Below, in pieces: positions 13,832-41,795 of a DNA stretch of 64,000 nt; position 1 is the stretch's first letter; each line of letters opens with the position of its first letter. Under the pieces are notes generated by a model. That model did not search any database. It saw only the letters and a program-made list of their open reading frames with translations, and had not been told where the DNA came from. A program made the translations under genes and the position numbers. Source of the DNA: an uncultured bacterium (GTDB lineage: Bacteria; Patescibacteriota; Minisyncoccia; UBA6257; GWB1-50-10). Where the stretch lies: NCBI GenBank assembly GCA_963768835.1, contig CAVYJB010000002.1, positions 208,223-272,222 on the forward strand. The letters are read 5' to 3'.

Positions 13832-13839
13832 CTATTCCC

Positions 13840-17028: not shown

Positions 17029-17039
17029 TTCCAAGACGA

Positions 17040-18670: not shown

Positions 18671-18808
18671 GGCTGATTTATCTCATCAAGCTCTTGGGTG
18701 GGGTTAGGGTATGATGGGCGATTGGCTCAACTTGAGGAGGTTCGCGTTCGTCCCTCTCCTCTCATCTCATAGACAAAATTCAGCTCATTTGCTATCTTAG
18801 AAAGTATT

Positions 18809-20122: not shown

Positions 20123-20215
20123 TTGTCACACCGGTCGGGCAGAATCATCGTGTCTGCGGAACAACTGCGACGCATTCTGTCCGCACCCTCCTTACAAGAT
20201 TAACCCAATATCCAC

Positions 20216-21208: not shown

Positions 21209-21212
21209 CGTT

Positions 21213-21971: not shown

Positions 21972-22004
21972 TTATCTGGGCTTCGCCCTCAGGAGAAACT
22001 TTTA

Positions 22005-22718
22005 ATGGTGAACTTTGCGAGGAGATACTATCATCGGATTCGACTCACTCTCTGGTCGGTTTTCCATCTGCCAAAGAAATTATTTGTTGCTGATACAAAT
22101 CTGTTTTTTCCTGCATGGAATTGGCAGGTGGCGCTTCTTTGTAAGGTGCCCTCTACGATCATTCAGAACGGGCGCATGACCTATGAGCCCATCGAGCGCG
22201 AACACTTCCTGGGACTTTTGGAAAAGGGAGATATTTTCTTTGATGTGGGGGCAAACATCGGATATTATTCTCTCCTTGCGGCAGGGCACGGGGCCAAAAA
22301 AGTTTTTGCATTTGAAATACTTGATGAGTACGCCTCTATCGCAGAGAAAGCGTTTAAGCTTAACCATATCGATGGAGAGGTCATAAGATGCGGCGTTGGG
22401 AAAGGAGACACTCCCATTTCTTTCAATGATTCTCTCGCTGGCAAATCCGGGCGTACACCTCTCGCGCTTGATGATTTTTCGAAAAAGAGCGGCATGTATC
22501 CCGACGTAATCAAGATGGATATCGAAGGGTTTGAAGGCGAAGCCTTGCAATATGCAACGGAAATATTAAAGAGAAAGCCTTCAATCGACATCTCCGTCCA
22601 TTCAAAGTTTCTTGAAGAAAAAGGAACAAGTGGTGAGGCGGTACTTAGCCTCTTGGCGGGATTTGGGTATCGCGTTCAGTATGAATACGGAGGAACGCAT
22701 TTTATGAAGGCGAAGTAG
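22005..22718 (+). CDS. FkbM-family methyltransferase
   Basis: 'FFDVGANIGYYSLLAAGHGAKKVFAFE' and 'IKMDIEGFEGEAL'. Confidence 0.6.
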   Translation: MVNFARRYYHRIRLTLWSVFHLPKKLFVADTNLFFPAWNWQVALLCKVPSTIIQNGRMTYEPIEREHFLGLLEKGDIFFDVGANIGYYSLLAAGHGAKKVFAFEILDEYASIAEKAFKLNHIDGEVIRCGVGKGDTPISFNDSLAGKSGRTPLALDDFSKKSGMYPDVIKMDIEGFEGEALQYATEILKRKPSIDISVHSKFLEEKGTSGEAVLSLLAGFGYRVQYEYGGTHFMKAK

Positions 22719-26582: not shown

Positions 26583-27189
26583 CTTCTATGAACGTTATTG
26601 GGGGGAACGCGAAGGGGAGCACCTCACGGATTTCCTCGAGAAATGGCCGAAACTCCGTCCGCACATTCCACTTGCGGACGGTATCACCATTGTTGATTTT
26701 GGTTGCGGCGCCGGCGCGGTGCTTCAGGAGATTCGGAAACTGAACCCCCACGCTCGCCTCATTGGTCTCGATGTGTCGGAGCGCGCGTTGAAGAGGGCGA
26801 AAAACGCCTTACCCGGCGGGCAATTTCATCACATTGAGGATGGCGGCGCATTTCCCCTTCCAGACCGTTCCGTGGACTTTCTCTTTTCTTCTGAAGTCAT
26901 CGAGCACGTGTACGACACTGAGAATGCGTTTGCGGAGATGGCGCGCGTGGTGAAGAATGGAGGCAAGGTACTTCTCACAACGCCGTATCACGGGTTCGTG
27001 AAGAACCTCGCAATCGTCTTCTTCGGTTTCGACCGGCACTTCAGCCCCACGGGGCCCCATGTCAGGTTCTTTTCGAGAAAGAGCCTTATAGCCCTTTTCC
27101 AGAAGAACGGGTTCCAGGTACTCAAAGAGGGATACTACGGGCGCTTCTACCCGCTCTCGCACTCCATCTACATCCTTGCGGAAAAATAA
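26563..27189 (+). CDS. Class I SAM-dependent methyltransferase
   Basis: 'IVDFGCGAGAVLQEI' and 'GGKVLLTTPY'. Confidence 0.55.
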   Translation: MSSMPASFYERYWGEREGEHLTDFLEKWPKLRPHIPLADGITIVDFGCGAGAVLQEIRKLNPHARLIGLDVSERALKRAKNALPGGQFHHIEDGGAFPLPDRSVDFLFSSEVIEHVYDTENAFAEMARVVKNGGKVLLTTPYHGFVKNLAIVFFGFDRHFSPTGPHVRFFSRKSLIALFQKNGFQVLKEGYYGRFYPLSHSIYILAEK

Positions 27190-28054
27190 TCCTATGAAAC
27201 TTCCTGTCACCGTCATCATTTTGACGAATAACGAAGAAAAGAACCTGCCGCACGCGCTCCGGAGCGTCGTGGGCTTTGCTCACGAGATTGTGGTAGTAGA
27301 CTCCGGGAGCACCGACCGCACGGTGGAGATTGCCCGCACGAGCGGCGCACGCGTCATTGTGCACGTGCCATACGAGAACCAAGCCCGGCAGTTCAACTGG
27401 GCTTTGGACAACGCTGATATCAAAAGCGAGTGGATCTTTCGGCTGGATGCCGACGAGTGGCTCATGCTGGAGCTCGTGGCGGAACTGGAGAAGGAGCTCC
27501 CCCGTGCGGCGAAAGAGACCGGCGGCTTTCTCATGAAGCGGCGGGTGTATTTTATGGGGCGCTGGATCAGACATGGGGGTTACTACCCGACCTGGATCCT
27601 GCGTCTCTTCCGGAACGGGCAGGCGCGCTACGAAGACCGCGCGATGGATGAACATCTTGTGGTTTCGAAGGGGCGCGTAGAACGCCTGGAGAACGATTTT
27701 GTGGATGAGAACCGTAAAGGGCTCGCTAATTGGATTGCAAAACACAACGACTTCTCAACGCGAGAAGCATTGGAGCGGCTTCGGGAGCGTACGGAGATGC
27801 AGGGAAAAATGGCGGGATCTCTCGAAGGTGCACAAGCGGAACAGAAGCGCTGGGTCAAGAACAATCTCTATCTTAAGTTCCCGCTCTTCCTGCGCGCGTT
27901 TGGTTATTTTCTCTATCGCTACATAATCCGCCTCGGATTCTTAGACGGGCGCGAGGGTCTCATTTTCCACTTTCTCCAGGGTTGCTGGCACCAGTTCCTT
28001 ATCGACGCGAAGGAATTCGAACTGAAGAGAGCGGGGAGCCATGGCGGACACTAA
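27176..28054 (+). CDS. Glycosyltransferase family 2
   Basis: 'VTVIILTNNEEKNLPHALRSV...VVVDSGSTDRT' and 'RLDADEW' (DxD). Confidence 0.6.
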   Translation: MRKNNPMKLPVTVIILTNNEEKNLPHALRSVVGFAHEIVVVDSGSTDRTVEIARTSGARVIVHVPYENQARQFNWALDNADIKSEWIFRLDADEWLMLELVAELEKELPRAAKETGGFLMKRRVYFMGRWIRHGGYYPTWILRLFRNGQARYEDRAMDEHLVVSKGRVERLENDFVDENRKGLANWIAKHNDFSTREALERLRERTEMQGKMAGSLEGAQAEQKRWVKNNLYLKFPLFLRAFGYFLYRYIIRLGFLDGREGLIFHFLQGCWHQFLIDAKEFELKRAGSHGGH

Positions 28055-28823
28055 GACGGGCCTGAAAGAGCGCATCCGCGCGTATTGGGACGCCTCGCCC
28101 TGCGGAACGCTCGGAGACGTGCCGCAAGACCCGGACCGTGCCTATTTCGAGGGTGTGCGGGAGCGACGGTATCGTCTGGAGCCTTGGAGTGACCGAGGTA
28201 TATCGGGGGAGACGATCCGGGGTAAACGAGTGCTTGAGATCGGGTGCGGGTTGGGCACGGACGGGGGTGAGCTTGTACGTCGAGGCGCCACCTACACCGC
28301 CATTGACGCATCAGGGGAATCCTTGGAGCTTGCGCGACGCTTTTTCTCGCTCGAGGGGTTTGCGGGCACTTTCGTGCAGGCCGATGCCGAGCGCTTGCCT
28401 TTCCCTGATGCCAGCTTCGAGTTCGTATATTCGTGGGGCGTCTTGCATCACACGCCCGATATCCGGAAGGCCATCGCGGAAGTGCAACGGGTCCTTGTGC
28501 CAAACGGCAGTTTCTGCATCATGCTCTATAACCGGTGCTCACTCGTCGGCTTCCAGCTCTGGGCCCTCCATGGTCTCCTGCGTGGGAAACCATTCGTTTC
28601 CTGGCGAACGCTTTTTGCTGAACACCACGAAAGCCCTGGTACGCAGGCATTCACTAGACATGAGATGCGAGAACTTTTCCATGATTTTTCATCCGCGAAG
28701 CTTTGCACGGTTGTGACGCCCTATGACGCGCGCGTTGCCCATCGGCGATTTCTTCCGAAACCGCTGCGCGTGCTCATCCCCCGCTCGCTCGGATTCTTCC
28801 ATGTCATGAGCGGAACGAAGTAA
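28041..28823 (+). CDS. Class I SAM-dependent methyltransferase (paralogue of 8704..9630)
   Basis: 'VLEIGCGLGTDGGEL...YTAIDAS' and 'DASFEFVYSWGVLHH'. Confidence 0.6.
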   Translation: MADTKTGLKERIRAYWDASPCGTLGDVPQDPDRAYFEGVRERRYRLEPWSDRGISGETIRGKRVLEIGCGLGTDGGELVRRGATYTAIDASGESLELARRFFSLEGFAGTFVQADAERLPFPDASFEFVYSWGVLHHTPDIRKAIAEVQRVLVPNGSFCIMLYNRCSLVGFQLWALHGLLRGKPFVSWRTLFAEHHESPGTQAFTRHEMRELFHDFSSAKLCTVVTPYDARVAHRRFLPKPLRVLIPRSLGFFHVMSGTK

Positions 28824-28849: not shown

Positions 28850-30076
28850 TTATTTTCTAACCACCGAAGTGAGAAGTTCGTGGAGTTTCACCGCGATGAC
28901 CCGCCGGTCATAGTGTTTTTCCGCGTATAGTCTCCCGTTTTTCCCCAGCTCTTTCGCTTCCTTCGGGTCTCGGTATACGCGGAGTATGGTTTCCGCGAGT
29001 GCTTTGGGATCCTCCGGATGGATGACGAACCCGCATTCCGCCGCGCGGATGATTGCGGCGCCCTCGCCGTTGATGTTGATGACGACCGGGCGTTCGGCTC
29101 CCATGTAGTCGAACATCTTCGACGGGATAACATCCTTGAAGAGCGGCATGTTCTTGTAGGGGATGATCGCGAGCCCCGCGCGGGCAGCGAAGGCTGGCAT
29201 TTCTTCGCGCGGTCGTCCACCGGTGAAGATAACGTTCGAAAGGCCGTATTTCTTAGTAAGCGTCTCGCACCCCGCCTTCTTTGCGCCCTCTCCCACGATA
29301 AGGAAGACAATATCCCTTTCGTTCTTCAATATATTTGCGGCCTCGATGATTATTTCCGGAGCTTGCGCAAGCCCCAGGAGACCCGTATAAAGCGCGACGA
29401 ACTTCCCCGCGAGGTTATAGCGGGCATCCACGGTTGCGTGGTCCGCATCCGGCGTGAAAAGGTCGAGATCCGCGCCGTTCGTGATAAGCGCAAGCTTGTC
29501 CTCCGGCACGCCCTTCTCGGTGACAAGGCGGCGACCGATGCCTTCCGCGTTTACCGCGACCCGCGCGCTTGCGCGGTAGGCCTTCCGTTCGAACCGCTCC
29601 ATCAAACGAAAGAAAAGGTTTTTTCGGAGCATGCCGACCGCGAACGCGGACTCAGGCCAAATGTCGCGGATATCCGCGACAAGCGGCACGCGTCGGAGTT
29701 TCGCGATGACGTATCCGGCAAAGAGGACGGGTAGGGGTGGGGAGGAGGCAAAAATGACGTCGGGCTTCGGAACGCGCAGTCCCGCAAGCGTGGCCGACTT
29801 GAAGAACGAGCCGTACATCATGATGCGGTCCAGGAAACCTCTCCGTGGGGTGATCCAAACCCATGTACGCACGACCGTGACGCCATTCTCCTGCGTTTTT
29901 GAGAAAAGCCTATTTTTGTATCCGGGGAAAAGAACGCCCTTCGGGTAGTTCGGTGGCTCACAGATGACCGTGACCTCGTCGCCCAGCTCGGTGAGAAGCT
30001 TCGAAAAGGACCCGTGTCGGTGTGCCGGCGCGTTCGTTTCGGGGGGGAAGAATTGAGTGAGGAGGAGAACTTTCAT
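28850..30076 (-). CDS. Glycosyltransferase family 1 (GT4)
   Basis: 'MKVLLLTQFFPPETNAPAHR' is the canonical GT4 N-terminus. Start placed at that Met (30076) rather than at the 15-codon longer track start. Divergent from 30115 (+). Confidence 0.6.
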   Translation of the reverse strand: MKVLLLTQFFPPETNAPAHRHGSFSKLLTELGDEVTVICEPPNYPKGVLFPGYKNRLFSKTQENGVTVVRTWVWITPRRGFLDRIMMYGSFFKSATLAGLRVPKPDVIFASSPPLPVLFAGYVIAKLRRVPLVADIRDIWPESAFAVGMLRKNLFFRLMERFERKAYRASARVAVNAEGIGRRLVTEKGVPEDKLALITNGADLDLFTPDADHATVDARYNLAGKFVALYTGLLGLAQAPEIIIEAANILKNERDIVFLIVGEGAKKAGCETLTKKYGLSNVIFTGGRPREEMPAFAARAGLAIIPYKNMPLFKDVIPSKMFDYMGAERPVVININGEGAAIIRAAECGFVIHPEDPKALAETILRVYRDPKEAKELGKNGRLYAEKHYDRRVIAVKLHELLTSVVRK

Positions 30077-30114
30077 TTTTGCGCTTTCCCTTCTTTTAGT
30101 TATAATGCAGCTGC

Positions 30115-31359
30115 ATGTCAATCCGTAGGATTTCCGTCATCGGTCTCGGATATATGGGGCTTCCCATGGCTGCGCTTCTCGCGCAGGCAGGCTTTTCCGT
30201 TACGGGCGTGGATATTGATGCCAAGAGGGTACAGATGCTTCGGGAGGGAAAGGTGCCGTTTGACGAGCCGGGTTTCCCTGAACTTTTCAAACAAAGCTTC
30301 TCCCGGCTCGTATTTTCGAGGAAACCCGTTCCTTCGGACGCGTTCATTATAGCAGTGCCAACGCCCATCACGAAGCGGCGCACCATCGATCTCACTTTCG
30401 TCACGGCAGCGGTCCATTCCCTCGCACCCGTTCTCCGAAACGGGAACCTCGTGGTTATCGAATCCACTGTCGGTCCCGGTTCCTGCGCCGCAGCCGTAAA
30501 ACCCATCCTCGATCGGACCGGCAAACGCTATCTTCTTGCTTACTGCCCCGAACGCGCTTTTCCTGGGAAAACGCTCTATGAAATGGTCCACAATGACCGC
30601 ATTGTGGGCGGGATGAGCGCAACGTCCTCCGAAGCGGCCCGCGGTCTCTACAAGAAGTTCGTCAAGGGAAATATCTTTGTCACCGACATCGAAACTGCGG
30701 AGACGGTCAAGGTACTCGAGAATTCCTACCGCGACGTGAATATTGCTTTTGCGAACGAGGTTGCGAGGATGGCGCACACAATTGGCATCGATATCTGGGA
30801 GGTGATTCGGCTCGCGAACCGGCATCCACGCGTGGACATTATGCAGCCAGGTCCTGGCGTTGGCGGGCACTGCATCCCCATCGACCCGTGGTTCCTGGTG
30901 GAGAAAGGGAAGAAGGACGCAAAACTCATTCGTCGTTCTCTTCTTGTGAACGAAGGGATGCCGCACTTCGTGGTGGATCTTATGGAGCGGGCAGCGCGGA
31001 AGTATAAGTTAAAACCAAAGAATATTGCGATCCTGGGCGTCGCCTACAAAAAGAACGTGGATGATACCCGTGAAACTCCCGCGGAGCGAATCATCGAGAG
31101 ACTCCATGAGCTGCGGTACTCTGTCCGGTGTGCCGACCCTCTCGTGAAGCATTTCTATGAGCCGCTCTTTGGAGCGAAGGAGGCGCTTGCCTGGGCCGAC
31201 GCGGCCATTCTGGTCACTGACCACGACGCATTCCGGAAACTTTCCTTTACGCACCCAAAACTGAAGCTTGTGGTAGATACCCGCAACGCGCTAACTGAGG
31301 GGCAGCGGAAGCAACTCCGTCGCAAGAAAGTCGTCACGTTGGGGAAGGGTGTACAATAA
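30115..31359 (+). CDS. Nucleotide-sugar dehydrogenase, UDP-ManNAc / UDP-GlcNAc 6-dehydrogenase family (WecC/WbpA-like)
   Basis: 'ISVIGLGYMGLPMAALLAQAGFSVTGVDIDAKRV' Rossmann motif, and 'GGHCIPIDP' containing the catalytic Cys. Confidence 0.75.
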   Translation: MSIRRISVIGLGYMGLPMAALLAQAGFSVTGVDIDAKRVQMLREGKVPFDEPGFPELFKQSFSRLVFSRKPVPSDAFIIAVPTPITKRRTIDLTFVTAAVHSLAPVLRNGNLVVIESTVGPGSCAAAVKPILDRTGKRYLLAYCPERAFPGKTLYEMVHNDRIVGGMSATSSEAARGLYKKFVKGNIFVTDIETAETVKVLENSYRDVNIAFANEVARMAHTIGIDIWEVIRLANRHPRVDIMQPGPGVGGHCIPIDPWFLVEKGKKDAKLIRRSLLVNEGMPHFVVDLMERAARKYKLKPKNIAILGVAYKKNVDDTRETPAERIIERLHELRYSVRCADPLVKHFYEPLFGAKEALAWADAAILVTDHDAFRKLSFTHPKLKLVVDTRNALTEGQRKQLRRKKVVTLGKGVQ

Positions 31360-31365
31360 GTTGGT

Positions 31366-33534
31366 ATGAAGCAGGTATTCCAAAATCCGAAGTCCGGGAA
31401 GACGAACGTCGAGGATGTCGCAGCGCCCTCGGTGAGCCATGGCCGCGTGCTAGTCCGGAACCACTACTCCGTCATCTCCGCCGGAACCGAGCGGAGTATT
31501 ATCGAACTCTCGAAAAAGAGCGCGCTTGAGAAAGCCAAGGAGCGCCCGGACTACGTGCAGAAGTTCTTCCGCACGGTCCAGACCAAAGGGATCTTCGCTG
31601 CATGGCAAATGGTGCAGGCGAAGCTCTCGGTTCCTATCGCACTTGGCTACTCCTCCGCGGGTGAGGTGCTTGAGGCGGGGAGCGGCGTTGAAATGATAAA
31701 ACCCGGTGACCGCGTCGCGTGTGCAGGGCAGGACCACGCGTCGCACGCGGAGATAGTTTCGGTTCCGAAGAACTTAGTAGCGAAGATCCCGGAGGGTGTC
31801 GCGGATGATGAAGCGGCTTTTACCACACTTGGCGCCATTGCGCTTCAAGGTATCCGGCAGGCGGAGCTTACACCAGGGGAAAACGTAGCTGTGGTGGGGC
31901 TGGGGCTCCTAGGCCAGATTGGTGTTCGCATGCTCAAGTCTTACGGTCACCCCGTGCTAGGAATCGACGTGAACCCCGCGCAGGTGGCATTCGCGGAGAA
32001 GAACGGTCTTAACCAAGGATGCGTTCTGGGGCAGGACGACCCTGTGGCGGTTAGCCAGCGATTCACAGACGGCCGTGGGGTAGACGCTGTTATTATCTAT
32101 GCGAGCTCGAAAAGTGACGAACCCTTGAAGCTCGCGGTTTCCATTTCCCGCGAGAAGGGCCGCGTGGTGCAGGTGGGAAGCGTCCTCGCGAACATCCCCT
32201 GGCGTGATTTTTACCAGAAAGAGCTGGCGTTCTTTTCCTCCCGCTCCTACGGCCCGGGCCGTTATGACCGGCGCTACGAGGAAGGCGGGGAGGATTATCC
32301 CGTGGGCTATGTACGGTGGACGGAGCAGCGGAACATGGAGGAGTTCCTGCGCCTTCTTGCGGAAAAGCGCGTGAATGTCCGCGATCTTGTGACGAAAACT
32401 TTCCCCATTGCGGAGGCGGAGGCGGGGTATCGCTTTATCTTCGAATCGCAGCAACTGGTGCACGGCGTTCTTCTCTCGTACCCGGAGGGGCGACTTGCAG
32501 AAACAACCCTTCGCATTACGGAGCCTGTGCAGGGGGCGCTCGTGCCGCAGCAAAGCGTGCGAGTCGGGATCGTGGGTGTTGGGGCTTTTATGACGGGGAC
32601 CGTAGTGCCGCTCCTCAAGAAGATGAAGGACGTCTCCGTGCGCGCCGTCTGCGATTCACGCGGGCTTATTGCGAAGAATTTTGCTACCGCACTCGGCGCG
32701 GAGTACACCACCTCGGATTACCACAAGGTCCTCGAGGACCGCGCGGTGGATCTTATCGTCTGCGCGACGCGTCACAGTTCGCACGCAGCCATCGCGGAGG
32801 CGGCGCTCGCGGCGGGCAAAAGCATCTATGTCGAGAAGCCGCTCGCGCTGAACTCCGAGGAGCTTGAGAATGTGCTTCAGGTTGCGGCGTCGTCGAAGGG
32901 GCGACTCCTTGTTGGGTTTAACCGCAGATTCTCGCTGCATGTCCGAAAAACCCGCGAGGCGTTCTTGAAACGAACCACCCCGGTCCAGATGCTCTACCGC
33001 GTGAACGCGGGGCCGCTCGACAAGGATTTCTGGGGTTATGATCCTAAGGAGGGTGGCCGTATCCTTGGTGAAGGTTGCCACTTTGTGGATACGCTCCAGT
33101 ACATCGTCGGCGCGCCGGCGGTGCGAGTAAGCGCAACTGCGGTGCCGGTCCAGGGCGCGGTCACTCATGAAGAGAACTTCACTGTGACCATTGAGTATGC
33201 GGATGGGTCCCAAGGAACTATCGTCTACACCGCGCTCGGGAACTTCCGGGCGCCGAAGGAGTACTTCGAAGTTTATGGCGGGGGGACCGTCTGCAAAGTA
33301 GACGATTTCAAAACGGGAAGCATCATGCGACCCTCGGGTACGGAGAAACTAAACCTCTGGAAGCAGGACAAGGGCTATGCCGCGGAACTCTCCGCGTTCC
33401 TAGACGCGCTCCGGAGCGGCGCGCGCTCACCGATGCCGCTTGAGGACATCCGCACGGTCCACGAAACCACCTTCGCCATCCTTGAGTCCCTCCGAACCGG
33501 AAAGCCGGTCACCGTCCATGGGCGGGCGGCTTGA
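31366..33534 (+). CDS. Bi-domain oxidoreductase: N-terminal MDR/zinc-type alcohol dehydrogenase fold fused to a C-terminal Gfo/Idh/MocA-family oxidoreductase
   Basis: N-terminal 'VISAGTERS' and 'VVGLGLLGQIGVRM' indicate the MDR fold. C-terminal 'VRVGIVGVGAFMTGTVVP' and 'VDLIVCATRHSSHAAIAEAALAAGKSIYVEKPLA' are GFO_IDH_MocA hallmarks. Confidence 0.6.
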   Translation: MKQVFQNPKSGKTNVEDVAAPSVSHGRVLVRNHYSVISAGTERSIIELSKKSALEKAKERPDYVQKFFRTVQTKGIFAAWQMVQAKLSVPIALGYSSAGEVLEAGSGVEMIKPGDRVACAGQDHASHAEIVSVPKNLVAKIPEGVADDEAAFTTLGAIALQGIRQAELTPGENVAVVGLGLLGQIGVRMLKSYGHPVLGIDVNPAQVAFAEKNGLNQGCVLGQDDPVAVSQRFTDGRGVDAVIIYASSKSDEPLKLAVSISREKGRVVQVGSVLANIPWRDFYQKELAFFSSRSYGPGRYDRRYEEGGEDYPVGYVRWTEQRNMEEFLRLLAEKRVNVRDLVTKTFPIAEAEAGYRFIFESQQLVHGVLLSYPEGRLAETTLRITEPVQGALVPQQSVRVGIVGVGAFMTGTVVPLLKKMKDVSVRAVCDSRGLIAKNFATALGAEYTTSDYHKVLEDRAVDLIVCATRHSSHAAIAEAALAAGKSIYVEKPLALNSEELENVLQVAASSKGRLLVGFNRRFSLHVRKTREAFLKRTTPVQMLYRVNAGPLDKDFWGYDPKEGGRILGEGCHFVDTLQYIVGAPAVRVSATAVPVQGAVTHEENFTVTIEYADGSQGTIVYTALGNFRAPKEYFEVYGGGTVCKVDDFKTGSIMRPSGTEKLNLWKQDKGYAAELSAFLDALRSGARSPMPLEDIRTVHETTFAILESLRTGKPVTVHGRAA

Positions 33535-34492
33535 TTACTGGAGGCGTATCGCTTCGGTCTACCTCTTAGGGGCGCCGAGCGCGGTCACATTTTGGCACGA
33601 AAAACCTGCCGTGTCGGAGGGCGTGGATATGCATTCTCTCGGGGCCTATTACATGACCTTCGCGGATAAAGCGCGCTATACGGGGCCACGCGACGAGAAA
33701 GGCGTTATCAAGTTGGATTATCACGGATCTATCGGTGTGCGGTACAACCCTATCGCCGTTGCGCAGTACGGCCTCGCGCATTGGAATCTTTTCTTGAAAA
33801 CAAAAGATCACAGGCATTTAACCGAGGCGACGGCACAAGCGGATTGGTTGGTGGGGAATCTCGAGGAGAACGAAAAAGGCGTGCCGGTCTGGAAACATCG
33901 CTTCGCGTGGCGGTATGCGCAAGAACTCAAGCCCGGGTGGTACTCAGGACTCGCCCAAGGGAGTGGCATCTCGCTTCTCTCGCGCATCTACACCGCGACA
34001 AAGGATGAAAAGTACCGCGCGGCTGCGCAACGTGCCTTCCGAGCGTTCGTCACCAATGTGAAGGATGGGGGAGTGCAGGTGAAGGATGAGGAAGGCAACC
34101 TCTGGCTCGAAGAGTACATCGTTAAGCCACCGACCCATATCCTGAATGGTTTTCTCTGGACGCTCTGGGGTGTCTGGGATTACTGGCTTTTGACCGGTGA
34201 CAAGGTTGCGCACGATCTTTTTGACCGCTGCATCGCGACGCTCAAAACGAATCTCCCGCGCTACGATATCGGATTTTGGTCTCTCTATGATCTCTCGGAG
34301 CAGAATCTCAAGATGGTCGCCAGCCCTTTCTACCACCATCTGCATGTAGTCCAGCTTGGTGTCACACACATTCTAACCAGCGAGGAGGTGTTCGGGTTAT
34401 ACGCCAAGCGCTGGAGTCGTTATGCGCTAAATCCTCTCTACTTTGGCCTCGCGGTTGCCTACAAAGCGTTCTTTAAGATTTTTTATTTCTAA
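33518..34492 (+). CDS. D-glucuronyl C5-epimerase C-terminal-domain-like protein
   Basis: 'PGWYSGLAQGSGISLLSRIYTAT' resembles the 'WYSAMAQGQAIS' core of the C5-epimerase C-terminal domain. Start chosen at ATG 33518, which overlaps the upstream stop by 17 nt. An alternative start is Met at 33623. Confidence 0.45.
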   Translation: MGGRLDYWRRIASVYLLGAPSAVTFWHEKPAVSEGVDMHSLGAYYMTFADKARYTGPRDEKGVIKLDYHGSIGVRYNPIAVAQYGLAHWNLFLKTKDHRHLTEATAQADWLVGNLEENEKGVPVWKHRFAWRYAQELKPGWYSGLAQGSGISLLSRIYTATKDEKYRAAAQRAFRAFVTNVKDGGVQVKDEEGNLWLEEYIVKPPTHILNGFLWTLWGVWDYWLLTGDKVAHDLFDRCIATLKTNLPRYDIGFWSLYDLSEQNLKMVASPFYHHLHVVQLGVTHILTSEEVFGLYAKRWSRYALNPLYFGLAVAYKAFFKIFYF

Positions 34493-34503
34493 CCCCCGCT
34501 CAT

Positions 34504-35055
34504 ATGCCGAAGAAGAATATTGAAATAGAGTATCGCGCGCGTTTTGACGAGAAGAAACACATTGAGCTTCAAAAATTCTTGAGCGCAAAAGCGCAGGATT
34601 TAGGGCAGGACGACAAGGATGTCTATTTCTTTCTATTTCCGGACAAGCTCGTGAAGACGGTGAATAATATATCAAAGAAGACCGCGAAGATCGTTCTAAA
34701 ACTGAATAAGATTGGCAAGGGAAGCATTTTCGAGGAAATTGAGATTCCCATCAATTCAGGAGACTTCGATAAAGCGACAAGGCTTTTTGTCGCGCTTGAG
34801 ACGGGCGAGTATATGCACTCGTTCCAGAAACGGCACAACTATCTCTATAAAGGCGTTGAACTAGCGCTGAAGTGGAGCGAGACGTGGGGCTATCATCTGG
34901 AACTCGAAATTGTCATGGATGATGCCGAGGGGAAAGGAGATGCCGAAAGAAAGATATCCGCAGTTGCAGAAGAGTTAGGGATTAAAACCATGACAGACCA
35001 AGAGCTTTCGGAGTTTACGCAGGCTGCGGAGGCGGAATACAAGAAGCAGAAATGA
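34504..35055 (+). CDS. CYTH-domain protein (triphosphate tunnel metalloenzyme / CyaB-like)
   Basis: N-terminal 'NIEIEYRARF' matches the ExExK/R opening beta-strand signature of CYTH. Basic/acidic residues alternate along predicted beta-strands. The gene is low-GC. Confidence 0.4.
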   Translation: MPKKNIEIEYRARFDEKKHIELQKFLSAKAQDLGQDDKDVYFFLFPDKLVKTVNNISKKTAKIVLKLNKIGKGSIFEEIEIPINSGDFDKATRLFVALETGEYMHSFQKRHNYLYKGVELALKWSETWGYHLELEIVMDDAEGKGDAERKISAVAEELGIKTMTDQELSEFTQAAEAEYKKQK

Positions 35056-36005
35056 ACAAGATTTTGGACTCTACGAACTTTGTCGTTCAGGACTCCCGTT
35101 CTGTGAAAATCAACAGAATAAAGGTCTCTGAATTCTCGAAGATTTTCAAGCAGGAGGAAACTAATGACTTACTGAGCCAGGCCCCATTCGATTTTTCGGG
35201 ATTCAGTGACGATGAAAGGTTTAGATTTACACTCATCTTCCAGTCGATCAATTTCTGTTATTGGGGTGACCCCAAGTGGACAATTGAGCACGATGGGAAA
35301 CTCTACGATGGTGCTTGGGGCATGGTCGTCGCGCTGGGGCAAGGTATCCGAGATGGGTTTCCACTTCTCGACTTTAGGTATTGCTCGAAGATAACCAAAG
35401 ACGACCTTGGAAGAATTTTGCGGGCGAACACCGAGATTCCGCTGTTCGAAGAACGCTGGCGAATCCTCCAAGAGATTGGGTTGGTGATGTTAAGTAAATA
35501 CGAAGAGGGGTTAACCTCGCTTGTCGCTAATTCAAACTCCGATGCCGCAAGACTACTCGATGTGATCGTGCGGGATTTTCCTTCATTTAGAGATAGCTCA
35601 AGCTATCGGGGGCGAGAGGTGTTTTTCCAGAAGAGGGCTCAGCTGCTTATTACGGATCTTTGTCAGATGTTGAAGAGACAGGGTGTTATGCTCAAAAACA
35701 TTGATCAACTTACTGCTTGTGCAGACTACAAGCTCCCGCAGATTATACGACGACTCGGGATACTGGAATATGCCGACCAGCTCGCGAAAACAATCGACAG
35801 TAAGATCGAGCTCCCGCATGGGTCGGATGAGGAGGTCGAGATACGCGCTAACACCATTTGGGCAGTGGAGTATATGAAAGAAGAGATACAGAGACAAAGT
35901 CCAGATGTCACTTCAATGGAGATCGACGGTTATCTGTGGCAAGCCAGCCAGGAAAAGCCGGTTGACGAGAAGCCTTATCATCGAACAAGGACAACGGCAT
36001 ATTAG
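35052..36005 (+). CDS. Queuosine-salvage family (DUF2419/Qng1-like) protein
   Basis: 'FQSINFCYWGDPKWTIEHDGKLYDGAWGMVVAL' resembles the conserved core of the Q_salvage family. Low-GC gene that overlaps the stop of the upstream CYTH gene. Confidence 0.4.
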   Translation: MNKILDSTNFVVQDSRSVKINRIKVSEFSKIFKQEETNDLLSQAPFDFSGFSDDERFRFTLIFQSINFCYWGDPKWTIEHDGKLYDGAWGMVVALGQGIRDGFPLLDFRYCSKITKDDLGRILRANTEIPLFEERWRILQEIGLVMLSKYEEGLTSLVANSNSDAARLLDVIVRDFPSFRDSSSYRGREVFFQKRAQLLITDLCQMLKRQGVMLKNIDQLTACADYKLPQIIRRLGILEYADQLAKTIDSKIELPHGSDEEVEIRANTIWAVEYMKEEIQRQSPDVTSMEIDGYLWQASQEKPVDEKPYHRTRTTAY

Positions 36006-36029
36006 GCCCGTGGTATCCTTCCTCTAGAC

Positions 36030-36542
36030 ATGACCAATCCTTCCACAACCTGTCCCGGCTGTGGAATTGTGCTACCCGCCGGTTCAATACGAGCGAACGG
36101 GCTCGGCAACCGATCTCCTGAATGCCAGGAACTTTTCCACGAGTTGTCTTTCTACACGCTCGCGCATCCCAAGCCCTCCTTCTTTATCCATCAGTACGCC
36201 GTGGATGCCTACGCGGCGCAGCATGCGGGGCCAAAGACAAAGCCCATAACCGTGGCCTTCGCCCTGACGGGTCTCCATCTTTTCATAACGTATGGGTACT
36301 CGGGCCGAGAGGTCCAGAAGGCGCATATGTACATGGCGAAGCAAAGGAAGGAGTGGCCGACGTTCGCCATCCCGAAAACCAAGGGAGCACTCACGGTTCG
36401 GGATGTGATACAAGCTCCGGCCGGTCCGGAACGTGATAAGGCGATAAAGAACTGGGCTCGGTCGGTCTGGGCCGTATGGAGCGGTGAGCACAAGGCCGTT
36501 GCAGACCTCCTCGTGTCGCTGAACCTCCCGCCCGCTCGTTGA
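36030..36542 (+). CDS. Hypothetical Cys-containing protein (possibly DUF5946-like, zinc-ribbon N-terminus)
   Basis: 'CPGCG...SPEC' is a putative Zn-binding N-terminus. High GC, unlike the two upstream genes. No functional motif recognised. Confidence 0.4.
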   Translation: MTNPSTTCPGCGIVLPAGSIRANGLGNRSPECQELFHELSFYTLAHPKPSFFIHQYAVDAYAAQHAGPKTKPITVAFALTGLHLFITYGYSGREVQKAHMYMAKQRKEWPTFAIPKTKGALTVRDVIQAPAGPERDKAIKNWARSVWAVWSGEHKAVADLLVSLNLPPAR

Positions 36543-36670
36543 CTCCCTATCGGCTAATACGTGCGAATAAGAAAATAAGGGAATCGCTTCGTGATGCAAC
36601 GTTCTTGAAATCAGGATTTCCAGCCTCTACCATTTAGGTAGAGACCTTTCATATTCGGAGGGAAACAGAT

Positions 36671-37255
36671 ATGGGACTCTTATTACTTCTGCTTCTCGTG
36701 GTGCTCTACGCGCGATACTTGTTTGAAGACCTCCCGGAGCATAGAAGAATTCTGAGGTTGCAGGAGGCCGGGCTCAGGGCTACCAATGAGGACTGCGACG
36801 CGAGTGATGCAATGGACAACTGGCGTCTTGCGAATCCCACCATAGGGTTCGGCGACTCTGCGTATGCCCAAGAACTGGTATGGAGACGTATTGCCGCTTG
36901 GCGACGATTCATGGAGACCCACCCGCACGTGCAAGACCGCGGCTTCACCGCTTTTCTCTATTCTCTCCTCGACCAGCGCGGGTCACCGCCACCCGCCCAT
37001 CACTTACCGCTTTCTAAACGGCCTCCTACGGAGGCCGTTCTTTTTATACCTAGCCGAACCACTCGTCGTACCAGAGCGAAAGCGTTACGAGATTCCAGAT
37101 GCGGAAGTTATGCTCCACACCCCGTTCTTGGTGCGCATGGACAAGCGTGTTCACATAGTCGTAGTCGAGGATACCGCGCTCGCGGAGCTTGGAGTTCAGG
37201 ATGGCGTCCACGAAGAGTGGCGCCATTTTTGATTCTGGCTTCAGCCACTCACTAA
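36671..37255 (+). CDS. Hypothetical protein with a hydrophobic N-terminus; the 3' end is doubtful
   Basis: GGAGGG lies 7 nt upstream of the ATG, and the N-terminus 'MGLLLLLLLVVLYARYLF' looks like a signal/TM segment. The first ~110 aa look protein-like. The distal part is R/S/P-rich and overlaps the asnB-like 3' end on the other strand, so a frameshift or artefactual extension is possible. Confidence 0.25.
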   Translation: MGLLLLLLLVVLYARYLFEDLPEHRRILRLQEAGLRATNEDCDASDAMDNWRLANPTIGFGDSAYAQELVWRRIAAWRRFMETHPHVQDRGFTAFLYSLLDQRGSPPPAHHLPLSKRPPTEAVLFIPSRTTRRTRAKALRDSRCGSYAPHPVLGAHGQACSHSRSRGYRARGAWSSGWRPRRVAPFLILASATH

Positions 37256-38969
37256 GGGATGTCCCGAAGCCCTGTTTTTTACGCCAGATGATCTCGTGAG
37301 GGATGATGTCCTCGACGGCTTTTTTGAGGATGTACTTTGGCTCGTTATCCTTGAGTTTGATGTCCGCGGGGATTTGGAAGGCGAGCTCCACGAGACGGGT
37401 ATCAAGGAACGGCACCCGGCCCTCGAGGGAGTGCGCCATTGTCATCCGGTCCGCGCGCGCGAGGAGGAGCTCTGGCAGACGCTGTTTCACTTCAAGATAA
37501 GTGAGTTGCTTCAGGAAATCGGCTTTGTTGTCGATGCCCTCAAGCTCTTTATAGAAGCGTTCAATGTAGGGATAGCTCGAGGCATGGCGGATCCGCTCTT
37601 GGTAGCTTGGTGTGAGGAGCTTCTGTTTCTGGAAGTCCGAGAAGGCAATCGCGTTTCCCCAGTAGGGTTCCTGGTGATCCTTGAGGCGCCGGAAATACTC
37701 CTTATAGAAGTCGAACTTCGGGTGCGCGAGGAGCTTCGCAGCGCTCCAGGCGCCGTGCCGCGCGAAACCTGGGGTTTTCTCAAGCCAGTGCCACCAGCTC
37801 TCGTAGAGCCGGACAGCTTTAACGTAGGTGTCATACCCTGTGAAAAGCTCGTCCGAGCCTTCGCCGATCTGGATGACGATGACGCCTGCGTCGCGCGTGA
37901 GTTTGGAGAGCCAGTAGAGCGGGAAGCAGACCTGGTCGCCGTTCGGATCGTCGAAGTAGTGGGAGAACTTCGGGAGGAATTCGCGCATGTGCGCTTCGGT
38001 CGTCAGGATTTCGTGGGGTTTCGTGCCGATGCGCTCCGCGATGAGGCGGGAGTACTGGAACTCGTTGTACTTCGCGAACTCCTTCGAACCCACCGAGAAG
38101 GTTTCGACGGGCTTGCCGAGCGCCTCGCTCATCAAGGTTGCGTTCGTCGAGGAGTCGATGCCGCCTGAGAGGAAGCAGCCGAAGGGCACGTCTGAGACCA
38201 TCTGGAGTTTAATGGAATCACGCAGAAGCCGGCGAATTTCCGAGACGTAGAATTCCTCGCCCCGGCCCTCGGCGCCTTTGGCACGCGCGGGGTTCCAGTA
38301 CTCTCGCTCGGAGATAGCTCCGCCTGCGTCGATAGAGAGGAGATGCGCCGGGGGGAGCTTGCGCACATTTCGGAAGAGCGTGAGCGGCGAAGGGAGCGAG
38401 GAGAAGGTGAGGTAGTGAGAAACATTCGGTTCGTCGAGCTCCTTCTTGAAATCAGGATGGGCGAGGATTGCTTTGATTTCCGAGCCGAAATAGAAGGTCC
38501 CGTCCACGATCGCATAGTAGAACGGCTTGATGCCCATGTGGTCGCGCGCCGCAAGGAGGACTTTCTTCCGCTCATCCCAGATGACGAATGCGAACATGCC
38601 ATTCAGGCGCCCCACGAACTCCGGGCCGTACTCCTCGTACATATTGAGGATGACTTCAGTGTCCGAGCGTGACTTGAATGCGTGCCCCTTCTCCTCCAGC
38701 TCGCGCCGGAGCTCCATAAAGTTGTAGATCTCACCGTTGAAGGTGATCCAGGTGCCGCCACAGGCAGTCGTCATCGGCATATGGCCGGCCGGTGAGAGAT
38801 CAATGATCTTCAGCCTTCGGGTACCGAGCCCCACCTTCTTGTCTTGGGAGAAATAAGCCCCCGCGTCGTCGGGCCCGCGGTGCACCAAGGTATCGCGCAT
38901 GCGGACGAGATCGTCCTCACGGACAGTTTTCGAGTTCTTAAAATGGTAGAGACCAGCGATGCCGCACAT
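37050..38969 (-). CDS. asnB: Asparagine synthase (glutamine-hydrolysing) family amidotransferase
   Basis: 'MCGIAGLYHFK' gives the N-terminal Cys2 of the class II glutamine amidotransferase domain. 'GCFLSGGIDSS' is the PP-loop (SGGxDS). Confidence 0.8.
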   Translation of the reverse strand: MCGIAGLYHFKNSKTVREDDLVRMRDTLVHRGPDDAGAYFSQDKKVGLGTRRLKIIDLSPAGHMPMTTACGGTWITFNGEIYNFMELRRELEEKGHAFKSRSDTEVILNMYEEYGPEFVGRLNGMFAFVIWDERKKVLLAARDHMGIKPFYYAIVDGTFYFGSEIKAILAHPDFKKELDEPNVSHYLTFSSLPSPLTLFRNVRKLPPAHLLSIDAGGAISEREYWNPARAKGAEGRGEEFYVSEIRRLLRDSIKLQMVSDVPFGCFLSGGIDSSTNATLMSEALGKPVETFSVGSKEFAKYNEFQYSRLIAERIGTKPHEILTTEAHMREFLPKFSHYFDDPNGDQVCFPLYWLSKLTRDAGVIVIQIGEGSDELFTGYDTYVKAVRLYESWWHWLEKTPGFARHGAWSAAKLLAHPKFDFYKEYFRRLKDHQEPYWGNAIAFSDFQKQKLLTPSYQERIRHASSYPYIERFYKELEGIDNKADFLKQLTYLEVKQRLPELLLARADRMTMAHSLEGRVPFLDTRLVELAFQIPADIKLKDNEPKYILKKAVEDIIPHEIIWRKKQGFGTSLSEWLKPESKMAPLFVDAILNSKLRERGILDYDYVNTLVHAHQERGVEHNFRIWNLVTLSLWYDEWFG

Positions 38970-38979: not shown

Positions 38980-40479
38980 TTAGGGCAAGGGGTGCTCCGC
39001 GAGTCCTTCGCGACCCCGGAGAGCTTGGAGAATGGTACGGAGCTCGTGCACTAGAGGTTCCCGGAGGAGAAAGAGCGCCCCAACATAGACCGCGACGGAG
39101 GTGAAAAGGGTCAGCACCACCGATATCCCTCGGGCGTTCAAGACCCACGCCACGACCGCCATAATCACGGTTGCGATGGCGATGCGCGGAAGGTTTCGGA
39201 GGGTCGGGAAACGTATCATGCGCTGGCGCACGATACGCCACATAAGACCGTTGTTAAAGATGAGCGCGACGATGGTGGCGGCCGAGCAGCCAGCAATCCC
39301 GAAGGGTGGGATGAGGAGGATGTCGAAGAGGATGTTCGCAACACTTCCGAGGATCACAGGCACCGCGAGCCGTAGTTGCTGGTTGTACGCGATGGAGAGG
39401 TTCCCGAGGAGGGTCCCAGGAAAGACGAGGAGGACGGTGACGACGAGGAATCGGAAAGCCGCGGCCGCGGGGGCGTACTCCACTCCGTAGAGCAGCACCA
39501 TGAGCGGCTTTGCAAGAACGACGCCGCCGACTGCCATGGGTACTGCGACGAAGAGCACCGCGCGCATAGCCTGCTCCATCAATTCCTTGATTTTCGCCTC
39601 ACGCGCCTGCCGCACGAACCGGGACATCGCGGGGAAAATAGCGGCGGCGAGGATGGCAGGCAGAATGTAGAGGAGTTGGAGCACCTTCTGCGCGGCGGAG
39701 TAGTACCCGAGCTCCGTAGCGGTGCGCCACCACCCGAGCATCACAAAGTCGGTATTCAGCATGAAGGTGCCGAGAAGGCCAATGACGGCGATGGGGACGG
39801 CGGCTCGGAGAACGGGGCGCACGAGGCTCCGCTCGAACTTAGAGAAAATCTGCGACACCTGCTTGCGGACGATAATGAGTACGACAAGCGTGCCGAGGCC
39901 GGAGCTCGCGACGTAGGCGACGGTGAGAGCTCCGGCGGTGTGGGAAAGGGTTAGGATGACGAAGCCCGCGACCGTGATAGCGAGGTTTGTGAAGGTATTG
40001 ATGAACGCCTCAATCTCCATCTTTTCGAGGGCGCGCAGGTAGGATAGGCAAAAATCCCGCATGCCATCGAAAATAGTAAGAAGTGCCATGAAGGGGATGA
40101 GGACCCGGGCGGCGGGGATGTTCGAGAGCGACGGAGCCACGAAGATCATAATGAGGGCTGTGGCGGTCAGAAGCACCGCCTTGATCCAGAAGGTGGTGGC
40201 GAAGATTTGTAGGCGACGCTCGGGGTTTTGGCTCGCCTCGCGCGTAAGGATGTTGCTCACACCGATGTCGGCAAAGATGGTGAAAAACCCGGCGACCCCC
40301 AGCACGTAGGAGAAAACGCCGTAGTCTGCGGCTCCCAGAAGTCGCGCGGCGTAGATGATGATGGCGGCGCGGATTACACGGCCCGCAATCTGTCCGAACG
40401 AGAGCCAGAACACGTTTTTCACGATGGTCTGGCGCGTTCCGCGATTGTGGAGGAAGAACTCCCGAAGACGTGCAAACAT
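38980..40479 (-). CDS. Wzx-type oligosaccharide flippase (second copy)
   Basis: The polytopic N-terminus 'RQTIVKNVFWLSFGQIAGRVIRAAIIIYAARLLGAADYGVF' is clearly homologous to 23914..25407. Confidence 0.6.
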   Translation of the reverse strand: MFARLREFFLHNRGTRQTIVKNVFWLSFGQIAGRVIRAAIIIYAARLLGAADYGVFSYVLGVAGFFTIFADIGVSNILTREASQNPERRLQIFATTFWIKAVLLTATALIMIFVAPSLSNIPAARVLIPFMALLTIFDGMRDFCLSYLRALEKMEIEAFINTFTNLAITVAGFVILTLSHTAGALTVAYVASSGLGTLVVLIIVRKQVSQIFSKFERSLVRPVLRAAVPIAVIGLLGTFMLNTDFVMLGWWRTATELGYYSAAQKVLQLLYILPAILAAAIFPAMSRFVRQAREAKIKELMEQAMRAVLFVAVPMAVGGVVLAKPLMVLLYGVEYAPAAAAFRFLVVTVLLVFPGTLLGNLSIAYNQQLRLAVPVILGSVANILFDILLIPPFGIAGCSAATIVALIFNNGLMWRIVRQRMIRFPTLRNLPRIAIATVIMAVVAWVLNARGISVVLTLFTSVAVYVGALFLLREPLVHELRTILQALRGREGLAEHPLP

Positions 40480-40484: not shown

Positions 40485-41795
40485 TCAGCCGTGCGAGGCG
40501 AAGAGATACCGGACGGTTTTCAGGATGATGAGGAGATCGAGAACGAGGGAACGGTTCTTGATGTAATAGATGTCATACCGCAGTTTCTCATAGGCTTCTT
40601 CAGGGGACGCGCTCGGTTTGTAGTTAATCTGCGCCCATCCCGTGAGGCCCGGTTTCACCATGTGCCGCATCCCGTAGTAGGGGAGCCGCTCGTATTGCCG
40701 CACGAGTTCCACCCGTTCGGCGCGCGGGCCCGTGAGGGAAAGATCGCCGCGGAAGACATTCAAAAGTTGGGGGAACTCATCGAGGTGGGTAAAGCGAAGA
40801 ACTCGACCGACAGGGGTGAGGCGCGGATCATGCGCTTCCGTCCAGAGCGGTCCGTGATTCTCGCGCATTGTGCGGAACTTAAAGAGTGTGAAAGGGATAC
40901 CATTCTTCCCAACCCGTTCCTGTCGAAAGATGACGGGGCCGCGAGAGGAGAGCGCAATAAGGATCGCCGAGAGAAGCATAAAAGGGGAAAATATCACAGT
41001 TGTGAGAGTCGAGATGGCGATATCGACTAAGCGTTTCAGGGCGTCGTAGAAAGGACGTCGGGTAGTGATGTTCTCCAGAAACCACGCCTCCGCGAGTTCG
41101 TCGAGGGGGATCTTCTCAAAAACGAGTTCATAAAAATCCCAAAAATTAAGGATACCAACCTCGAGAGGAAGGAGACGGTATACCGCAGAGAGCACGTCCA
41201 GGTTGCTCGCGAAGTGCGGCTGAACTACGACGAGATGAACTCGCCGATTCTCGATCGCTGTTCGTAGGATGCGAAAATCCTCCGGGTGGGGGTCCGAGAT
41301 ACGAAGCTCAATCCGATACCCCGCAGTCGGATTCTCTTTGAGGAAGTGAGCTGTTTCCTCCGCGAGAGGCGAGGTTCCTAAAAAGGCCACCCCAAGCGCG
41401 CCTGAAGCGAAGAGACGCAGGAAAAGGGAACGAATGAAGAAGTCGAGCCCAAGGAAGAGAACGCTGAAAATGAGGAGATTCGTCTTCGGCGTCAGCCGGA
41501 AAAAATCTCCGAAAAGATAGAGCGCTACTGTCGAAAGTAGGGCCGCGACAACAACGGTTGCCGTGAGAGTCGAAAGAAGCGCCGCACGGTTTGGGGCCCT
41601 CCGGTGCCGGTAGAGGTCCGCGAGGTAAAACACAAAGAGCCACAAGATAAAAAGAGCTGAGAACGGCACAAGGTGGCTCTGCCAGCTTTGGGGGAAGGCC
41701 GAAAAGCCATAACGCACAAGAAGCGCCAGGACAAGGGCGGCGTAGAGGGCGGCGAGGTCGCCGGCTAAGAGAACCAGCTTCTTCCAGGTAGACAT
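40485..41795 (-). CDS. Polyprenyl-phosphate hexose-1-phosphate transferase (WbaP/WcaJ-like initiating phosphoglycosyltransferase, Bac_transf domain)
   Basis: The C-terminal 'RPGLTGWAQINY' / 'DELPQLLNVFRGDLSLTGPRAE' block is characteristic of the Bac_transf family. It is preceded by several TM helices. Confidence 0.75.
   Translation of the reverse strand: MSTWKKLVLLAGDLAALYAALVLALLVRYGFSAFPQSWQSHLVPFSALFILWLFVFYLADLYRHRRAPNRAALLSTLTATVVVAALLSTVALYLFGDFFRLTPKTNLLIFSVLFLGLDFFIRSLFLRLFASGALGVAFLGTSPLAEETAHFLKENPTAGYRIELRISDPHPEDFRILRTAIENRRVHLVVVQPHFASNLDVLSAVYRLLPLEVGILNFWDFYELVFEKIPLDELAEAWFLENITTRRPFYDALKRLVDIAISTLTTVIFSPFMLLSAILIALSSRGPVIFRQERVGKNGIPFTLFKFRTMRENHGPLWTEAHDPRLTPVGRVLRFTHLDEFPQLLNVFRGDLSLTGPRAERVELVRQYERLPYYGMRHMVKPGLTGWAQINYKPSASPEEAYEKLRYDIYYIKNRSLVLDLLIILKTVRYLFASHG

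Follow-up and report, generated by a model that had tools for sequence, protein, structure and literature searches.

Introduction

Animal D-glucuronyl C5-epimerase (GLCE; PDB 6HZZ, 6I01 and 4PW2) is a Golgi enzyme of ~617 residues, with N-terminal β-hairpin and β-barrel domains, that acts on long N-sulfated heparosan. Its Pfam family (PF06662, C5-epim_C) also has bacterial members. RED65_08024 of Bermanella marisrubri, a protein of 448 residues presumed to share the GLCE mechanism, is described in the literature as the sole bacterial PF06662 enzyme with shown activity, and its assay used a non-native substrate, O-desulfated heparin. Gae, from Escherichia coli O112ab and Shigella boydii 15, is a short PF06662 protein of 323 residues from a Wzx/Wzy-type O-antigen cluster; it is tied by correlation to L-iduronic acid (L-IdoA) in the product, and its glucuronic acid substrate is supplied by Ugd. 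A 2011 catalogue lists further prokaryotic candidates from O-antigen and capsule clusters (PMC3068255). Here we describe a short member of this family encoded at 33518-34492 in a 64,000-nucleotide stretch of a Patescibacteria genome (contig CAVYJB010000002.1, positions 208,223 to 272,222; the whole stretch is called the window below). Together with its neighbors it belongs to a widespread, uncharacterized bacterial cassette, whose probable product is an amidated N-acetyl-hexuronic acid of L configuration destined for a surface glycan.

Several other enzymes likewise C5-epimerize uronic acids after incorporation, including Halobacterium Agl32, which acts on a lipid-linked tetrasaccharide, alginate AlgG/AlgE and the dermatan sulfate epimerases. 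The folds and active sites of all of these are different from, or unrelated to, those of the window protein. A second kind of precedent comes from Bordetella, where WbmF/G/H, three short-chain dehydrogenase/reductase (SDR) proteins, would convert the uridine diphosphate (UDP) sugar of a D-manno diacetamido uronic acid (UDP-D-ManNAc3NAcA) to its L-galacto form (UDP-L-GalNAc3NAcA) through a proposed C4 oxidase, 3,5-epimerase and C4 reductase, and amidation is thought to fall on the nucleotide sugar. Amidation itself has been associated with the WbpS family, which is genetically required for uronamides in Porphyromonas gingivalis and Helicobacter pullorum and, as cited there, in E. coli O121. Its members WbpS, WbqG and PGN_1234 have ~640 residues, an N-terminal Cys nucleophile and a PP-loop, and are encoded in loci for hexosaminuronic acid glycans.

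The C5-epimerase-like protein

The genes considered first, with their strands and the searches that identified them, are:

28850-30121, minus strand: GT4 glycosyltransferase, WcaI-family-like (Pfam Glycos_transf_1 and Glyco_trans_4_4)
30115-31359, plus strand: nucleotide-sugar 6-dehydrogenase, WecC-like, 414 residues (Pfam, NCBIfam)
31366-33534, plus strand: bi-domain oxidoreductase, a medium-chain dehydrogenase/reductase (MDR) fused to Gfo/Idh/MocA, 722 residues (Pfam)
33518-34492, plus strand: GLCE-family uronyl C5-epimerase-like protein, 324 residues (Pfam PF06662, AlphaFold2/Foldseek)
37050-38969, minus strand: AsnB-family glutamine amidotransferase, 639 residues (Pfam, NCBIfam)

The protein read from the ATG at 33518 is a member of the GLCE family that retains the catalytic set and the fold. 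It matches PF06662 with an E value of 5.7e-47 (160.1 bits against a gathering cutoff of 23.3) and human GLCE (6hzz) with an E value of 6.8e-32. The GWYSGLAQG core on which a first-pass annotation had based its assignment is present at residues 140-148 (33935-33961) and pairs with GWYSAMAQG of human GLCE. The catalytic residues of the human enzyme are E499, Y500, N510, Y560 and Y578 (PMC13308652), and all five align with residues of the window protein (E199, Y200, N210, Y257 and Y272, respectively). Among 20 homologues of 53-62% identity, four of these positions never vary and Y200 is conserved in at least 90%.

The AlphaFold2 model of the protein (pLDDT 91, pTM 0.90) has human and zebrafish GLCE (6hzz and 4pw2) as its best solved matches in Foldseek, with E values of ~2e-14, a root-mean-square deviation (rmsd) of 2.0 Å over 213 columns and 33-34% identity. 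The next matches are other (α/α) toroids, such as GH76 and cellobiose 2-epimerases, at ~5e-4. The alignment spans residues 310-519 of the GLCE chain and a short 112-140 segment; the β-hairpin and β-barrel domains of GLCE are not present in the window protein, which is a single α-helical domain. Placement in the GLCE family holds in profile, catalytic residues and structure, the first two being the points on which the first-pass annotation was to stand or fall. Unlike the Golgi enzyme, the window protein has no signal peptide and belongs to a Wzx-type locus with a WecC-like dehydrogenase. An N-terminal signal peptide or Tat motif (YWRRIASVYLL) was considered and rejected, as homologues are charged there and the model gives a helix. 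The conserved C-terminal YKAxFKxFYF helix has a moderate hydrophobic moment of 0.30, and we speculate that it could be a membrane-surface anchor. By description, the window protein resembles RED65_08024 in family membership and Gae also in size and cluster type, but RED65_08024 is longer, and Gae uses glucuronic acid and has no reported association with a bi-domain oxidoreductase or AsnB.

Probable substrate, amidation and redox partners

The dehydrogenase matches the N-terminal, central and C-terminal UDPG_MGDP_dh domains (E values of 2.5e-48, 3e-27 and 2.7e-20) and scores 408 bits against TIGR03026, whose cutoff is 190. It was annotated at first pass as hexosaminuronic or hexuronic, and the former type is favored: the UDP-N-acetylmannosamine (UDP-ManNAc) dehydrogenase models score 378 and 344 bits, with NF008286 (WecC) as the best equivalog model, although both are under their equivalog cutoffs (459 for NF008286), while the UDP-glucose dehydrogenase models score 69-179 bits. 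An orthologue with 59% identity in another Patescibacteria locus (L005) adjoins WecB, and in two further loci (L084 and L085) dehydrogenases with 45% identity lie between WecB and C5-epim_C. The dehydrogenase therefore probably converts UDP-ManNAc to UDP-N-acetylmannosaminuronic acid (UDP-ManNAcA), and because of its closeness to the UDP-ManNAc models and the adjoining WecB genes, the uronic acid substrate is most likely ManNAcA. Inversion of D-ManNAcA at C5 yields L-N-acetylgulosaminuronic acid (L-GulNAcA). L-GulNAcA occurs in the exopolysaccharide of Vibrio cholerae, and there too it has been proposed to arise in this way (PMC3901696). The product of the cassette is probably an L-GulNAcA-type residue, not the iduronic acid that had been suggested.

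The AsnB protein combines an Asn_synthase domain (E value 2e-89) with GATase_7 and GATase_6, and bears both the N-terminal MCGIAG, with Cys2 as nucleophile, and the FLSGGIDSS PP-loop. In these features, in length and in its setting it resembles WbpS, WbqG and PGN_1234. It passes the asparagine synthase model TIGR01536 (509.6 bits, cutoff 267.1) and aligns end to end with eps_aminotran_1 (TIGR03108), which represents the WbpS family, at 493.5 bits against a cutoff of 816.9, and hence is not a called member. AsnB lies adjacent to the cassette in 43 of 77 related loci, and next to the oxidoreductase in four of five contexts sampled as described below. A probable role, judged from these similarities and from the genetics of the WbpS family, is a WbpS-like conversion of the uronic acid to a uronamide, as first proposed.

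Both parts of the annotated MDR::Gfo/Idh/MocA fusion are found by Pfam in the oxidoreductase: ADH_N and ADH_zinc_N at residues 85-300, and GFO_IDH_MocA with its C-terminal domains at 398-717. The closest solved relatives are inositol and sugar dehydrogenases, with PDB matches to inositol 2-dehydrogenase (4hkt) for residues 397-687 and to alcohol dehydrogenases for 125-278. Read by eye, the sequence has SAGTE and GYS at the Cys-His and His-Glu positions of zinc alcohol dehydrogenases, so the MDR half appears to be without zinc ligands; GLGLLG, EKP and GCHFVD are kept, leaving the NAD(P) and Gfo/Idh/MocA motifs intact. One possibility is that the enzyme carries out both formation and reduction of a 4-keto group. 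If it also causes inversion at C3, the product would be L-N-acetylgalactosaminuronic acid (L-GalNAcA). Two Patescibacteria loci also encode, close to the cassette, a different two-domain oxidoreductase of 647 residues, in which an SDR epimerase/dehydratase is joined to Gfo/Idh/MocA (L009:1413-3356 and L005:1-1833, both minus strand).

Conservation of the cassette across genomes

To place these genes in context, all open reading frames (ORFs) of 80 related loci were clustered; counts are given out of the 79 other loci or out of 77. The GT4 glycosyltransferase is a near-universal partner, present in 76 of the 79 other loci and mostly directly downstream of the epimerase on the same strand. Its best NCBIfam model, matched over the full length, is the WcaI family NF007640 (200.8 bits, under the cutoff of 276), and its true start is probably ~45 nucleotides inside the listed TTG. 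The bi-domain oxidoreductase occurs in 34 of 77 loci, directly 5′ of the epimerase in the Patescibacteria loci where it is found; the GT2 cluster occurs in 39 loci and the methyltransferase cluster in 12. The usual order in Patescibacteria is GT2, methyltransferase, oxidoreductase, epimerase and GT4, followed by convergent AsnB, Wzx and phosphoglycosyl transferase genes. Five loci (L002, L005, L007, L008 and L009) are syntenic with the window, and the shared order takes in the DsbA-like and thioredoxin reductase genes on its flanks. GT4 has moved and been inverted in both the window and L005, so that it lies upstream of the dehydrogenase and divergent from it.

Five homologues of the oxidoreductase (46-47% identity) were also picked blind to their neighbors, and C5-epim_C and GT4 lie downstream of the oxidoreductase in four of them. 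Two (L084 and L085) have a tight, co-directional unit of AsnB, oxidoreductase, WecB, dehydrogenase, C5-epim_C and GT4. L086 has AsnB, oxidoreductase, C5-epim_C and GT4, and L087 has the last three without a preceding AsnB. The fifth, L088, has oxidoreductase and AsnB beside Wbp-type genes and no epimerase. Identities between the proteins of these six-gene units and those of the window are 34-49%, and the catalytic motifs are conserved, so the window can be seen as a rearranged version, without WecB, of a widespread cassette. An early view that the dehydrogenase is foreign to the cassette, prompted by its presence in 2 of 79 loci, was revised once these contexts proved to embed WecB and the dehydrogenase.

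Among the best 150 representatives of the family, C5-epim_C is fused to GT4 (P0266 and P0269), to a Wzx-like flippase (P0282) and to a methyltransferase (P0323). The epimerase part of P0282 shares 39% identity with the window protein (residues 44-302) and follows ~12 membrane spans, by a crude hydropathy count, and a Lys/Arg-rich linker, which would probably place it on the cytoplasmic face of the membrane. The GT4 and Wzx fusions support a functional link of the epimerase to the GT4 step and to a lipid-linked intermediate. The same set holds other architectures, tandem double epimerase domains and fusions to extracellular CWB2, dockerin, PKD and Calx-beta/TIG domains (P0274, P0270, P0334, P0364, P0382 and P0370). 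These look like secreted, polymer-level proteins distinct from the signal-peptide-free clade.

Proposed pathway and alternatives

The reading that we favor, with roughly even confidence, is that ManNAcA is epimerized to L-GulNAcA at a lipid-linked stage on the cytoplasmic face of the membrane and is then amidated. The WecC-like dehydrogenase would oxidize C6 of UDP-ManNAc to give UDP-ManNAcA, and GT4 would add this residue to a polyprenyl-diphosphate-linked intermediate begun by the phosphoglycosyl transferase. The GLCE-like protein could then use its Glu/Tyr set to take the C5 proton and restore one from the opposite face, turning the D-manno uronate into an L-GulNAcA-type residue. The AsnB/WbpS-like enzyme would convert the C6 carboxylate to an amide, and Wzx would flip the finished unit. 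The oxidoreductase would contribute an extra redox step, most plausibly by forming a short-lived keto group to aid the inversion or extend it.

Several observations weigh against this pathway. WecB was not found anywhere in the 64-kb window, and just two of the 79 other closest loci have a dehydrogenase within 10 kb of the epimerase, so the supply of the uronic acid is presumed here. A close homologue of the epimerase (P0084) and the flippase fusion P0282 are without an equivalent of Y200, and each fusion protein is one metagenomic gene call. Sequence cannot tell an epimerase from a lyase that begins with an identical proton abstraction, and the substrate and product proposed for the short, signal-peptide-free clade are read from sequence and context. 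Finally, a nucleotide-sugar pathway is just as consistent with the arrangement of the full cassettes, in which precursor genes come before tailoring genes and the glycosyltransferase is last, and with the affinity of GT4 to the WcaI family.

Such a nucleotide-level pathway is possible, and we consider it less probable than epimerization on the lipid carrier. One domain of the oxidoreductase would oxidize C4 of UDP-D-ManNAcA, the GLCE-like protein would exchange the proton at C5 and possibly C3, and the other domain would reduce C4 to give a UDP-L-hexosaminuronic acid, which AsnB would amidate and the WcaI-like GT4 would transfer as a finished L-sugar. The full cassettes of L084 and L085 are ordered as nucleotide-sugar operons, with the transferase last, and in the window dehydrogenase, oxidoreductase and epimerase are tightly packed on the plus strand, with 7 bp between the first two and a 17-bp stop/start overlap between the last two. 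GT4 is nearest to the WcaI family, and WcaI uses an L-sugar donor. Bordetella provides a parallel: it too yields a partly amidated L-hexosaminuronic acid from a D-manno uronic precursor, with C5 (and C3) inversion, flanking redox steps and glutamine amidotransferases, but its SDR proteins are not homologous to the GLCE-fold protein and MDR::Gfo/Idh/MocA fusion seen here. Against this, no PF06662 enzyme has a known nucleotide-sugar substrate, and the characterized members described, animal GLCE and Bermanella RED65_08024, act on sugars already in a chain. The Wzx::C5-epim_C fusion also points to a lipid-linked substrate, and in many loci the epimerase and GT4 are encoded but the oxidoreductase is not, which shows that the epimerase is not generally dependent on it. 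The stronger proposal that the oxidoreductase and the GLCE-fold protein together open a hitherto undescribed, SDR-independent way to UDP-L-hexosaminuronic acids, with L-GulNAcA or L-GalNAcA and the corresponding amides as products, is doubtful. If true, it would show the GLCE fold at work on nucleotide sugars for the first time, would supply a missing enzyme for L-hexosaminuronic acids and would give many Patescibacteria and Acidobacteriota a hallmark sugar of their envelope.

It is improbable that the PF06662 protein instead cleaves uronates as a lyase or trims them, or serves GT4 as a partner without catalytic activity, with AsnB an ordinary asparagine synthetase that happens to lie nearby. 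Epimerases and lyases do share their first chemical step, the (α/α) toroid is common to GH76, cellobiose 2-epimerases and polysaccharide lyases, and AsnB passes the generic asparagine synthase model. However, the 20 homologues keep the complete GLCE catalytic set with little or no variation, and AsnB is syntenic with the cassette across phyla, stands inside the operon of the phosphoglycosyl transferase and Wzx, and matches eps_aminotran_1 along its whole length.

Least probable, by a small margin, is the heparosan-type enzyme of the first-pass annotation, a polymer-level D-glucuronyl C5-epimerase making iduronic acid in a glycosaminoglycan-like chain: for all its GLCE homology and catalytic residues, the activity of the Bermanella enzyme on desulfated heparin and the L-IdoA of the E. 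coli O112ab O antigen, whose cluster carries a PF06662 gene, the window protein lacks the β domains of GLCE and has no signal peptide, and so cannot reach an exported polymer, the dehydrogenase prefers the UDP-ManNAc over the UDP-glucose models, full cassettes embed WecB and thus point to ManNAcA and a gulo-type product, assembly is by a phosphoglycosyl transferase and Wzx, and no heparosan-synthase-like gene turned up in Pfam scans of the large ORFs of the locus.

Distribution of the family

The family had been called rare in bacteria, which the searches contradict. A word-index search returned 3,684 proteins at 90% clustering, and a profile search against 1.84 billion representatives clustered at 50% identity gave 5,804 clusters with E ≤ 1e-3, of which 1,458 reach E ≤ 1e-30. 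Relatives are found in 526 species-level genomes, and PGAP already labels these proteins ‘D-glucuronyl C5-epimerase family protein’. The window adds a further example of a recognized and annotated enzyme family and not a rare heparan-like system. What makes it interesting is the hypothesis about the cassette and its occurrence in Patescibacteria, not rarity or any tie to heparan sulfate. The clade of short proteins without a signal peptide has very many members, keeps to a single glycosyltransferase as partner and is often found in the six-gene unit. The cassette gives a testable proposal for the origin of bacterial L-configured N-acetyl-hexuronic acids and their amides, and may account for a surface sugar that is common in Patescibacteria, a group with hardly any envelope studies. 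A literature search gave nothing useful on the bi-domain oxidoreductase, on heparinase II/III-asparagine synthase cassettes or on C5-epimerases of Patescibacteria.

The closest homologues of the epimerase (56-62% identity) are from Patescibacteria. Plasmid-borne O-antigen clusters of the Shigella sonnei type, which contain L-N-acetylaltrosaminuronic acid (L-AltNAcA), were considered as a home of the family and rejected, as tblastn against plasmids gave only seven distant matches, in Deinococcus, Priestia and Streptomyces. In the Priestia locus the epimerase is followed by a glycosyltransferase weakly similar to the GT4 of the window, with WecB and a dehydrogenase close by; the Deinococcus copy is an isolated fragment amid insertion sequence elements. 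In the Acidobacteriota loci (L013-L081), a protein of ~360 residues without a Pfam match is encoded immediately upstream of the epimerase in 44 loci (for example in L081:8811-9890 and L057:7347-8777). A carbamoyltransferase often precedes it (28 loci), and GAF and PilZ-GAF-Sel1 proteins are encoded downstream.

The surrounding locus

The cassette lies in a large glycan locus, at 3-42 kb of the window, with many glycosyltransferases and methyltransferases. Its other features near the cassette are:

27176-28054, plus strand: GT2 glycosyltransferase (Pfam), accompanying the cassette in Patescibacteria loci
28041-28823, plus strand: S-adenosylmethionine (SAM) methyltransferase (Pfam), likewise accompanying the cassette
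34504-35055: CYTH protein (Pfam), co-directional with the next two
35052-36005: queuosine salvage protein, Q_salvage/PF10343 (Pfam)
36030-36542: DUF5946 protein (Pfam)
37017-37039, no strand assigned: terminator-like hairpin with a 10-bp stem (consensus scan), between the convergent plus- and minus-strand operons
38980-40479, minus strand: Wzx-type flippase (Polysacc_synt, MurJ), syntenic in Patescibacteria loci
40485-41795, minus strand: priming polyprenyl-phosphate glycosyl-1-phosphate transferase (Bac_transf, E value 2.3e-61; TIGR03025 EPS_sugtrans, 337 bits, cutoff 296), syntenic in Patescibacteria loci

We propose that the region from 27 to 42 kb is a single Wzx-dependent assembly line for a surface glycan, built around the conserved sugar-tailoring cassette. 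AsnB is the final gene of the operon that also holds the phosphoglycosyl transferase and Wzx. The four genes originally named (dehydrogenase, oxidoreductase, epimerase and AsnB) are all present as ORFs, with profile matches too far above curated cutoffs to be due to chance, and AsnB is indeed linked to the epimerase in related loci, but the GT4 partner at 28850-30121 on the minus strand, the foreign insertion at 34504-36542 and the Patescibacteria origin had been overlooked. CYTH, Q_salvage and DUF5946 are absent from every related locus in the 80-locus clustering. These three genes are an insertion outside the sugar pathway, and the G+C content of CYTH and Q_salvage (0.45-0.47, against 0.56 for the window) suggests that it is recent. 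The hairpin at 37017-37039 is to be read with the caveat that shuffled sequence holds at least as many terminator-like sites in total as the region does. An ORF on the plus strand at 36671-37255, which the gene caller shortened to 36864-37232, has no family match, overlaps the 3′ end of AsnB and spans the hairpin; it is probably not a real gene.

The locus has a second Wzx-type flippase at 23914-25407 (plus strand), in addition to the one at 38980-40479 (minus strand), and L009 also has two. The paired flippases suggest two adjacent glycan assembly lines. Proteins resembling Wzy_C/O-antigen ligases and GT9 heptosyltransferases are encoded at 3459-4853 and 7413-8711; to our knowledge, Patescibacteria are not expected to make lipopolysaccharide. 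Methylation genes are unusually dense across 5622-7397 and 9455-22718, and include a B12-binding radical SAM protein (5622-7397), four FkbM-family methyltransferases (9455-10573, 15033-15929, 17040-17897 on the minus strand, and 22005-22718) and a C-methyltransferase (18809-20122). Part of this stretch falls in a region of lower G+C content (0.50) at 14-24 kb; the window as a whole has ~56%. FtsZ, encoded at 51953-53155, has named best matches exclusively in Patescibacteria (Jorgensenbacteria, Brennerbacteria, Minisyncoccia and Paceibacterota; 65-77% identity). On this evidence, together with the epimerase homologues and the syntenic loci, the window is assigned to the Patescibacteria (CPR). 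Two very large putative surface proteins are encoded at 55936-61176 (1,746 residues, with Big_7 and BACON_2 repeats) and at 4-3336 (1,110 residues, with a peptidoglycan-binding domain).

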